A DNA stretch of 64,000 bases from Dictyostelium discoideum (taxonomy: Eukaryota): contig CM000154.2 in assembly GCA_000004695.1 (NCBI GenBank), forward strand, positions 2,400,001 through 2,464,000, in the 5' to 3' direction. Numbering within the stretch: the first letter of the stretch is position 1; each line of letters begins with the position of its first letter. The notes beneath the pieces were generated by a model. It worked only from the letters and a program-made list of their open reading frames with translations, did not search any database and was not told where the DNA came from. The position numbers and the translations under genes are program-made. This document shows, one piece after another, positions 58,397 through 60,913 of this stretch.

Positions 58397-58514
58397 ATTA
58401 TTATTATTATTATTATTATTATTATTATTATTATTATTATTATTATTATTATTATTATTATTATTATTATTATTATTATTATTATTTATTATTATTATTA
58501 TTATTATTATTATT
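58397..58514. repeat. (ATT)n microsatellite of about 39 units, intergenic between the H2A-like gene 3 stop and the capping-enzyme stop
   Basis: A direct read of ttattattatt... with one interruption; it produces the spurious poly-Tyr ORF 58333..58536. Confidence 0.9.
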
Positions 58515-60459
58515 GAGGAAATGGTTGATAAGTTGAAGTTGAAGATTTAGAAGGTTTAATATTATTGATTAATTGAGATCTAATTCTTGACATTTCTTCT
58601 TCCCAATTATCATCATGAGGTAATAAAGGTATACGATATTTCAACTCGTCACTTGATAAGTTCTCAGCGATACTTTCCATTGTATCCATTACGATACTGA
58701 TATAATTACCTTTTTTTTTATCATGTCTAACTTGATGAAATTTCCAAGTTCCCCATTTTGGTTGAAAAGAACATTCAGCTACAACGGTTGAAGTATCTCT
58801 TGCTCTTTGAAATTCTCTTCTTAACTTTTGTAAATCATCATTTGAAAAGTTTACCTCTCTACAATCGACTTCAATATTATCATTGGCCACACAACTTAGA
58901 TACCACCCTTTCTGACCACGATCTCTTACCTTGAAATCTATAGTCCACTTATCACAATATTTCCACTTGAATAATGTATGAACTGTATAATTACTATAGG
59001 CTATATTTGGTGTGAATATAATACCATCAGTATTGTGACATCTTTTCCCATCTGAATAAACTCTTTCACCATTTGGATATTCTTTAATATTTTTAAATAA
59101 ATTTACAATCTTTGATTTAAGTTGGAATGATTTACCCAATATATCAAATGGTGTATCAACCTTTAAATTTGAACGTAATGTTGAAACTACATTACCAATC
59201 TCTGTTAATCTATCTTTTAATAATTTTTGATGATGTAATTCATTCTTTACTGATAAAACATCAAATATTAAAAAATTTGCTCTTTTAGTTTGTAAATTTC
59301 TAACCATTTCACCATCTAATAATGTACCTTCTCCAAATAATGTTACAAGTATACTATATTTATAATAAAAAAATAAATAAAAATAAAAATAAAAAAATTA
59401 AATTACTATTTTATATTTATTTTTTATCAATAATAATAATAATAAATTATAATAACATACTCAAAACCTTGAATTTGATAAAAATCAAATTTTCTATCAA
59501 CCAAATAACAACCAGTATGATCAATTAATAACATATATCTTATACCATCAGTTTTATCACTAACAAAATATTCATTATTTTGAACATGAATAAAATATTT
59601 CTTACCAAAATTTACAGGCATTGAACCAGGAAATGTATCATTTTTTCTTTGTGGAGCACTTGGAATATACTTAAATACTAAATCTCTCAATCTATAAAAT
59701 TCTGAAACATTTCCAACTTTATCTAATGAAATTTCTGGAAATGATGTTTCTCCGCCATTTTTAACTATATTTGTTAATCCTTTAATCTATAAATAAAAAT
59801 TAATAAAAATTAATAAATTAAAAATAAATATAAATAAAAATAATTTTAATATGAATAATTATTATCAATTAATAATTACAGCATTTAAAAAATCATTTAA
59901 TAATTCAGTTAAACTTGTTTTTTCTTGACAAGCTTGAATTGCTTCAGGGAATAATTCAATTTCAACTTCATAAAGTTCTTGTTCAACTGTAGCATTGAAA
60001 TCTGGTCTAACAATAACTTTAGTTAAATCTATTTTCCATTGATCCTCTGTAAATGTATATCTTTGTTTTTCTCGACGAATGATATAACCTGGTGGTAATG
60101 ACAGAGGTGGTGGGAATTTCTCTTCGATTGAGGTTGATATTCTAAAATCATAAATTAAATTGGTTGATTGATCAAAACTAGTTTTATCGGTTTTCTTATC
60201 CTTTCTTAAACATTTCTTTGAATGTTCATCATAGGCTACACGAATTGAATCACTATAAATATAATCTGTCTCTGTGGTTGCTACTGGTTCCGATTTCAAT
60301 TTCAAATGATGATAAAGATCATTCCAATCATCTCTAACCATACCTGGTTTAAATGTATTACCATTTGATGTATTTGAAAATAATCCAATTCTACCTTCTA
60401 CCTCTATTGAATCAATACCACCATGTTGTTTTGATAATTCTATAATTCTATTCATTACA
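58510..60459 (-). CDS. Bifunctional mRNA capping enzyme: N-terminal triphosphate-tunnel (TTM, Cet1-like) RNA triphosphatase fused to a C-terminal GTP:mRNA guanylyltransferase. Exons 59880..60459 (ATG at 60455), 59461..59786 and 58510..59353, about 581 aa from the ATG at 60455
   Basis: TTM hallmarks are the N-terminal IEVEGRIG (ExExR) and the C-terminal YEVEIEL (ExExE) beta-strands. The guanylyltransferase has FPGSMPVNF, the KxDG motif VSDKTDGIRYML, TLLDGEMV, FLIFDVL, DGIIF and the OB-domain lysines. Intron donors are GTAATT and GTATGT with consistent phases (..DFLNA/IKGLTN.. and ..QGF-D-ILVTLFGEG..). Confidence 0.8.
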
Positions 60460-60809
60460 CTATCTAATGAAAATGTTGATTTAATTGATGTTGATTGTAA
60501 TTTACTTTAAATTTTTTTTTTTTTTTTTTTTTTTTATTATTATTATTTGGGTCCAATGGTTGATTGAGGTAATAACGAAAATGGTTGATTGAGGTGAAGA
60601 TGGTAATTGTGATAATTTTAAAAAATAAAAACAATAATATTTTTTTTTTTTTTTTTTTTTTTAAAAAAAAAAAGAAAATAAAAATATTAATAACCCAAAA
60701 AAAAAAAAAAAAACCAAATATATTGTGTAATTTATTTATATTTATTTTATTTATATATATATTTATTTATTTATTTATTTATTCAAAAAAAATGAAATTT
60801 AATTATTAC

Positions 60810-60913
60810 CCATGTTGACTTTGGTCAATGTCACCTAAGATTGATGATAATGGATCATCATCTTGTTTACTTTTTTTATTTGGCCCATTCGAATCATTAT
60901 TTGAACGTTTCAT
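60810..60913 (-). CDS. Candidate additional 5' coding exon of the capping-enzyme gene (MKRSNNDSNGPNKKSKQDDDPLSSILGDIDQSQHG), joined through a roughly 350-nt intron
   Basis: A minus-strand ATG at 60913 opens a hydrophilic, NLS-like ORF that ends exactly at a GTAATA donor (phase 2). The acceptor GATAG at 60460-60461 lies 4 nt upstream of the annotated ATG and joins in frame (..QHG-G-VMNRIIEL). Without splicing, an in-frame TAA blocks upstream extension. Confidence 0.3.

Follow-up and report, generated by a model that had tools for sequence, protein, structure and literature searches.

Does the minus-strand gene at positions 58510-60913 of a 64 000-nt stretch of Dictyostelium discoideum DNA (GenBank assembly GCA_000004695.1, contig CM000154.2, positions 2,400,001 to 2,464,000; hereafter the window) encode an mRNA capping enzyme in which a triphosphate-tunnel (TTM) RNA triphosphatase is joined to a guanylyltransferase (GTase), and is such a protein an oddity among cellular capping enzymes? 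A sequence-only reading of the window had answered yes to both questions. Four exons join into a protein of 632 amino acids (aa), and comparison of the window translation with the public protein of strain AX4, XP_636333.1, revealed 0 differences. By cluster look-up this record is the same as EAL62833.1 and UniProt Q54HV6, at locus DDB_G0289199, and in a protein search the 632-aa D. discoideum protein spanned 100% of the query. We regard it as very probable that DDB_G0289199 is a nuclear, single-copy-type gene for an mRNA capping enzyme which carries the TTM triphosphatase and the GTase on one polypeptide. Public records already contain the gene, its Pfam domains and the 632-aa model with the first exon, so that none of these is new; what the present analysis established is the gene structure, the identity of the domains, the conservation of their motifs, their predicted folds and how widely the fusion is spread among taxa.

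Judged from sequence profiles and structure models, the N-terminal domain is clearly a predicted tunnel RNA triphosphatase of the Cet1 type. Pfam recognized PF02940 (mRNA_triPase) in the N-terminal part with 38.6-40.8 bits, above the cutoff of 24. The N-terminal regions of 23 fused homologues were then aligned (alignment A1), and the A1 profile, searched against all PDB sequences, matched Cet1 of Saccharomyces cerevisiae (2.2e-21), Pct1 of Schizosaccharomyces pombe (4.3e-20), Cet1 of Trypanosoma cruzi (1.5e-15) and the RNA triphosphatase (RTPase) domain of mimivirus (4.8e-6). In the alignments to Cet1, IEVEGR falls on 'IELEMKFG', RxKxR on 'RTKDR', DLT on 'DIT' and YEVEIE on 'HEVELE'; in those to Pct1, the first two elements fall on 'VEIEAKLG' and 'RLKDR', respectively. 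The tunnel marks on which the sequence-only reading had based its assignment (ExExR, here in the form IEVEGR, EVEIE and the basic tunnel residues) are all present in the domain. Within A1, E69, E71, R73, G75, K139, D154, E162, R179, K181, R183, T196, E214 and E216 are invariant, and F86, G89, R123, Y153, R156, D194 and E218 are conserved in at least 90% of the sequences. The matching of the basic and DxT residues to individual essential residues of Cet1 is one that we take to hold from the mutagenesis work of the Shuman laboratory. An AlphaFold2 (AF2) model of A1 had a mean predicted local distance difference test score (pLDDT) of 84, mostly >90 over residues 45-255; it displays nine long strands (residues 68-219) and two flanking helices, i.e. 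an antiparallel beta-barrel tunnel, as a predicted structure only. Foldseek comparison of this model with the PDB retrieved Pct1 (3e-11), T. cruzi Cet1, the TTM-like RESC1/2, vaccinia D1 and E. coli YgiF. Comparison with Cet1/CYTH profiles was the check that had been named as able to refute the assignment, and PF02940, Cet1, Pct1 and the fold search all returned matches.

The C-terminal part had been called a canonical KxDG guanylyltransferase, and this was borne out by every motif looked for. PF01331 was found on the GTase with 103 bits (cutoff 29.6) and PF03919 on the OB domain with 46 bits (cutoff 26.5). The KTDG element, with K321 as its lysine, aligns to the KTDG of Cgt1, Pce1 and Ceg1, which phmmer retrieved from the PDB sequences with 1e-23, 3e-22 and 4e-22, respectively; further matches were PBCV-1 A103R and the human and mouse enzymes (~1e-12). 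The other motifs follow in canonical order: III, TLLDGEMV (362); IIIa, FLIFDVL (379); IV, DGIIFTP (461); V, LFKWKY (479); and VI, WKFHQVRHDKKKGN (555). All 24 homologues compared keep K321, D323, G324, R326, D365, E367, K481, K483, R561, D563 and K564. The chain stops about 40 residues past the OB domain and has no methyltransferase domain, PF02940, PF01331 and PF03919 being the only domains given by Pfam; a motif scan found no HCx5R[ST] or Cx5R cysteine-phosphatase loop anywhere in its 632 residues. The full-length AF2 model has a mean pLDDT of 85 and a predicted template modelling score (pTM) of 0.71, with residues 1-44 and 623-632 disordered.

The 5′ end of the gene is where the sequence-only reading had to be amended. 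It had proposed an unannotated first exon, basic and similar to a nuclear localization signal (NLS), that opens at a minus-strand ATG at 60913, ends at a GTAATA donor and is spliced to the AG at 60461-60460. The ATG, the basic, NLS-like reading frame and the donor are there as described, but the exon cannot be called unannotated, as XP_636333.1 already starts at ATG 60913. The acceptor was misplaced: the AG at 60461-60460 is in frame, but it lies 45 nt downstream of the reference acceptor, 60506-60505, and its use would delete 15 conserved residues. Around the reference acceptor the sequence reads ...AAATTTAAAG up to the junction and TAAATTACAA beyond it; this AG is the first one past the A/T-rich body of the intron and the other is the third AG downstream. 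The 15 extra codons encode KLQSTSIKSTFSLDS, followed by V. Their counterpart in D. purpureum is 'NKSTAVKSTFSLESVMNKIIEL', and a segment of the form (K/R)S(T/H)FS..(S/N)(V/L) is kept in Polysphondylium, Heterostelium, Acytostelium and transcript-derived sequences. The peptide of exon 1 is likewise conserved in D. purpureum, Polysphondylium, Heterostelium, Acytostelium and transcript-like contigs. A 617-aa model, with ATG 60913-60810 joined at AG 60461-60460, was built, scanned and dropped, the reference protein and the orthologues being 15 residues longer.

Could the downstream AG nevertheless serve the 60809 donor, either for the main product or for an alternative isoform of 617 aa missing residues 36-50? 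Both acceptors of intron 1 are in frame and 45 nt apart, but we consider such a use of the downstream AG very improbable. The reference model chooses the upstream AG, residues 36-51 ('KSTFSLE(S/N)V') are conserved in the dictyostelids and transcript-derived sequences just listed, and the skipped segment holds structured parts of the TTM fold: in the AF2 model, helix 48-61 is the first TTM helix and is preceded by a beta-bridge at residue 45, so that the earlier-proposed join would remove the bridge and the first turn of the helix. A further start may be read from the DNA, since the pieces that begin at ATG 60455 (60455-59880, 59786-59461 and 59353-58510) join into an open frame of 581 aa; this 581-aa protein was absent from a collection of 15 billion proteins. 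Base composition also differs between exons and introns: the G+C content is 33% in exon 1 versus 12.5% in intron 1, and 4-5% in introns 2 and 3 versus 25-29% in the exons flanking them, in a locus (58300-61200) whose DNA is very A+T-rich and Dictyostelium-like.

With the reference acceptor, the protein begins with a tail in which two short elements stand out. The first, KR...KKSK, is most likely a nuclear import signal, judging from its pattern, and of the 19 fused orthologues examined, most have a K(K/R)x(K/R) cluster close to the N-terminus, among them those of Amoeba proteus, Stenamoeba, Pterocystis and Saprolegnia. The second, DPLSSILGDI, conforms to a pattern, D-[PVA]-x-x-x-[ILV]-[ILM]-G-x-[IM], found in 8 of 10 dictyostelid sequences. 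Both models give, with low confidence, a helix over residues 21-32, which gains no confidence in the full-length one, where residues 1-44 have a pLDDT <50 and no docking of the N-terminal motif on a domain was seen. Lying between the NLS-like element and the tunnel domain, this dictyostelid DPLxSILGxI peptide could be an undescribed docking motif, for instance for the transcription machinery.

The next point is whether the two domains are really joined. The claim of one spliced gene stands, and both internal introns, 59879-59787 (GTAATT...AG) and 59460-59354 (GTATGT...AG), were confirmed in the sequence. For the domains to be joined, the 93-nt intron 2 must be spliced out; if it were retained, the frame would stop after 'LNAVIIN' (a 196-aa open reading frame (ORF), 59865-60455), and a genomic ORF product of this kind is present in the collection (P0053). 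One may thus ask whether adjacent Cet1-like and Ceg1-like genes have been merged through a falsely predicted intron. We find this highly improbable. The fusion is real: intron 2 splits a single predicted TTM helix (230-251), which is continuous and confident across the junction in the models. Moreover, the GTase could not be made alone, since the first in-frame Met of exon 3 is M299, inside the conserved FPGSMPVNF element. In relatives, the fusion is seen on transcript assemblies with uninterrupted frames: a fused ORF of 637 aa fills a Logan contig of 1984 nt, another of 655 aa fills contigs of 2.19-2.21 kb whose 5′ ends agree within 2 nt in three independent samples, and Trinity transcripts marked 'ORF type:complete' carry the fusion in Ceratiomyxa, Cavostelium, Clastostelium, Arcella, Amoeba proteus and Stenamoeba.

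The same conclusion is reached from the other end, i.e. from the TTM domain alone. When 1.84 billion representative proteins were searched exhaustively with A1 by HMMER (E ≤1e-3), 4096 matches were obtained. Among the best 150 of these, 137 representatives were newly retrieved; in 78 of the 137 the TTM domain is followed by a GTase on its C-terminal side, and this holds for every one of the 63 with a length of 550 aa or more. A word-indexed search with the same 23-sequence alignment gave 1 match versus the 4096 of HMMER, and this single match is not evidence of rarity. Pfam confirmed the fusion in Evosea (Clastostelium, Ceratiomyxa, Cavostelium), Tubulinea (Arcella, Amoeba proteus) and Discosea (Stenamoeba, Balamuthia, Paramoeba) and, outside Amoebozoa, in the centrohelid Pterocystis and in oomycetes (Globisporangium, Achlya, Saprolegnia, Bremia, Hyaloperonospora and several Phytophthora), where many of the fused proteins are labelled 'mRNA 5'-phosphatase' in UniRef. 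One fused homologue lies on a 44-kb contig beside a DHX29-like helicase, an FYVE/ankyrin protein and an NAD kinase, which is a cellular context. The view of this fusion as an architectural oddity must therefore be given up, given that each of the three major lineages of Amoebozoa has it, as do oomycetes and a centrohelid: it is the normal architecture for Amoebozoa and is present in at least two other supergroups.

In some database entries the TTM-GTase unit is only a part of a predicted protein of far greater length, such as one of 1114 aa from Balamuthia (P0100) and one of 2303 aa (P0116). One such oversized protein bears the name 'HAT C-terminal dimerization domain', and in another the unit is combined with ATG9, thioredoxin, EGF and protein kinase domains. 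In all likelihood such entries are gene models that were merged, and not real architectures.

The likeness to viral capping enzymes, which the sequence-only reading had pointed out for giant viruses and baculoviruses, is genuine at the level of the fold. The domain order is that of the giant-virus, African swine fever virus (ASFV), poxvirus and LEF-4 enzymes, and there are fold-level matches over both domains. When the full-length model was compared with BFVD, the enzymes of Clandestinovirus, Orpheovirus, Pithovirus, Marseillevirus, Megavirus, ASFV and an entomopoxvirus were matched over 600-800 alignment columns, at 12-19% identity to these structure models. The best relatives on viral contigs, found with the full-length alignment, are only 26-34% identical, mostly over the GTase part; six viral loci have a reported match range that reaches into the TTM region, and the one examined (L024) is a standalone GTase of 307 aa. 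Across dictyostelids and other Amoebozoa, identity to the D. discoideum protein declines with phylogenetic distance, from 97% to 65, 52, 47, 41 and 34%. Because of the introns, of this gradient and of the missing methyltransferase, we favour vertical descent over a recent viral origin. That a fused gene of a nucleocytoplasmic large DNA virus was recently integrated into the genome of an amoeba, as the shared N-to-C domain order and the fact that amoebae host such viruses might suggest, is very unlikely for a gene with three spliceosomal introns, host-like composition, orthologues throughout Amoebozoa whose identity follows phylogeny, no methyltransferase domain and such low identity to its viral counterparts.

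The Dictyostelium enzyme can be set beside four known arrangements. The fused enzymes of other protists (Amoebozoa, oomycetes and Pterocystis) have the same order, PF02940-PF01331-PF03919, in about 600-750 aa, agree with it in the invariant residues of tunnel and GTase and, in many cases, have a basic N-terminal cluster. However, outside the dictyostelids identity is only 24-41%, and DPLxSILGxI is largely restricted to dictyostelids. No biochemical characterization of these fused protist enzymes was apparent in the literature searched. The fungal enzymes, Cet1/Pct1 and Ceg1/Pce1/Cgt1, belong to the same two catalytic families, share their motifs and include the best fold match, Pct1, but they are separate polypeptides, non-covalently associated or independently recruited, whereas the Dictyostelium pair is covalently fused. 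The Dictyostelium TTM domain is also more compact than the fungal one, as indicated by a target-normalized template-modelling score (TM-score) of 0.72-0.73 with T. cruzi Cet1 versus ~0.62 with Pct1. Mimivirus R382, vaccinia D1, ASFV NP868R and baculovirus LEF-4 likewise carry a TTM domain and then a GTase on one chain. With the exception of LEF-4, these viral enzymes bear a C-terminal guanine-N7 methyltransferase, which the Dictyostelium enzyme lacks; unlike them, the Dictyostelium gene has introns and encodes an NLS-like tail. Finally, Mce1/RNGTT of metazoans and plants is also a bifunctional triphosphatase-GTase polypeptide, with a homologous GTase, but its triphosphatase belongs to the cysteine phosphatases and bears an HCxxxxxR(S/T) motif, which is absent from the Dictyostelium protein, whose N-terminal domain is of the predicted metal-dependent tunnel type.

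As to how such an enzyme would work, its catalytic chemistry, its nuclear targeting and a coupling of the two steps by the fusion are what we infer from the families concerned. The 5′ triphosphate of nascent RNA would be bound inside the eight-stranded beta-barrel of the TTM domain (residues ~45-252), where E69 and E71 of the first strand and E214 and E216 of the last would hold a divalent metal; R123, K139, R179, K181 and R183 would contact the RNA phosphates, and the gamma phosphate would be hydrolysed. The GTase (residues ~264-592) would form a covalent K321-GMP intermediate from GTP, and the GMP would then be passed from K321 to the diphosphate RNA end. Because no methyltransferase is fused, a separate Abd1-type enzyme must methylate the cap. 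The basic part of the disordered tail encoded by exon 1 would direct the protein to the nucleus.

Some observations weigh against this reading of the locus as a bifunctional nuclear capping enzyme. The Pfam score of the TTM domain is modest (~39-41 bits), in contrast to the strong results of the family-specific profile and of the fold search. The NLS call is one of motif resemblance only, in a tail that is of low confidence in both structure models. A search for the spliced exon 1-exon 2 junction, with degenerate bases and with both acceptors covered, gave 0 matches in metagenome contigs, which is uninformative. No enzymology or localization data on this protein were found in the searchable literature.

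The features of the gene are collected in Table 1.

Table 1. Coordinates of the features of the capping enzyme gene, as positions in the window (-, minus strand)
Feature	Position	Strand	Remarks
Coding exon 1	60810..60913	-	ATG 60913; residues 1-35, phase 2 end; tail disordered, pLDDT <50
NLS-like basic motif KR-x9-KKSK	60866..60910	-	Residues 2-16 (KRSNNDSNGPNKKSK); bipartite-like pattern
Dictyostelid motif DPLSSILGDI	60827..60856	-	Residues 20-29; short predicted helix
Intron 1	60505..60809	-	305 nt, GTAATA...TTTAAAG; donor GT 60809-60808; acceptor AG 60506-60505
AG proposed earlier as acceptor	60460..60461	-	In frame; unused by the reference model; would drop residues 36-50
Coding exon 2	59880..60504	-	Residues 35-243; most of the TTM domain
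Cet1-type TTM RNA triphosphatase domain (predicted)	59760..60476	-	Residues ~45-252; intron 2 falls in the C-terminal helix 230-251
Tunnel strand 1, IEVEGR (E69, E71, R73)	60390..60407	-	Residues 68-73; invariant in 23 fused homologues
Basic tunnel strand R179-x-K181-x-R183	60060..60074	-	Invariant
Last tunnel strand EVEIE (E214, E216, E218)	59955..59969	-	Residues 214-218; E214, E216 invariant; E218 ≥90%
Intron 2	59787..59879	-	93 nt, GTAATT...ATAG, 4% G+C
Coding exon 3	59461..59786	-	Residues 244-352; end of TTM helix, linker, start of GTase including KTDG
GTase nucleotidyltransferase domain	58957..59726	-	Residues ~264-484; motifs I, III, IIIa, IV, V; contains intron 3
Codon of K321, predicted GMP-accepting lysine (motif I KTDG)	59553..59555	-	Invariant in 24 homologues
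Intron 3	59354..59460	-	107 nt, GTATGT...ATAG, 5% G+C
Coding exon 4	58510..59353	-	Residues 353-632 and stop TAA 58512-58510
GTase OB-fold domain	58633..58944	-	Motif VI WKFHQVRHDKKKGN at 58705-58746; R561, D563, K564 invariant

On the minus strand, the stop codon is directly followed by a (TAA/ATA)n trinucleotide microsatellite of about 115 nt (window 58395-58509) and then by poly(A)-rich DNA; this 3′ region is typical Dictyostelium intergenic DNA. Upstream of the gene, at 61603-62463 (-), an ORF of 286 aa resembles the C-terminal half of MFS_1 with 31.7 bits, just below the cutoff of 33.4; a transporter gene probably has its last exon here. On the other side, all on the plus strand, are three further ORFs. 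The one at 57743-58267 has a 125-aa Met-start part that matches Pfam Histone with 27 bits (cutoff 26.4) and an H2A-like end, 'RIKPKDISWSIQSDPEFNLLF', and that at 55467-56201 consists of long Ser/Pro-rich repeats, then 'SRSTRAGLTISVSRVEKLLRGRRY', which resembles the N-terminal helix of H2A, and then a probable intron; by these resemblances, both are probably divergent H2A-variant genes. The third (56763-57653) is an intronless ORF of 296 aa that matches the arginase/ureohydrolase family PF00491 (42.5 bits versus a cutoff of 22).

What had been said of this architecture before? The abstract of the mimivirus study by Benarroch, Smith and Shuman in Structure (volume 16, page 501, 2008) reportedly states that the viral RTPase-GTase fusion 'resembles the capping enzymes of amoebae'. 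In the full-text literature searched, we found neither an explicit statement of a TTM-GTase fusion in Dictyostelium or other amoebae nor a description of the Dictyostelium capping enzyme. Dictyostelium and Entamoeba were listed among organisms with a metal-dependent triphosphatase of the fungal type in a paper published in 2004 (PMC5172449), which also mentions 'additional fusion events' among capping enzymes, and Benarroch et al. are cited in PMC2904801. General reviews and a 2019 preprint give unicellular eukaryotes separate capping enzymes, three in number.

The present analysis has thus two useful by-products: the splice acceptor of intron 1 is corrected, and the fused form, overlooked by textbook summaries, turns out to be widespread in protists. 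Since it is found in at least three supergroups (Amoebozoa, Stramenopiles with the oomycetes, and Haptista with the centrohelid), the fusion may be ancient. One could go further and imagine that it possibly predates the radiation from the last eukaryotic common ancestor, that its fission gave rise to Cet1 and Ceg1 as separate enzymes in fungi, alveolates and kinetoplastids, and that giant viruses took the fused form; we offer this scenario tentatively and think it rather unlikely as it stands. The wide spread of the fusion among protists bears on the evolution of the capping apparatus and of its viral copies.

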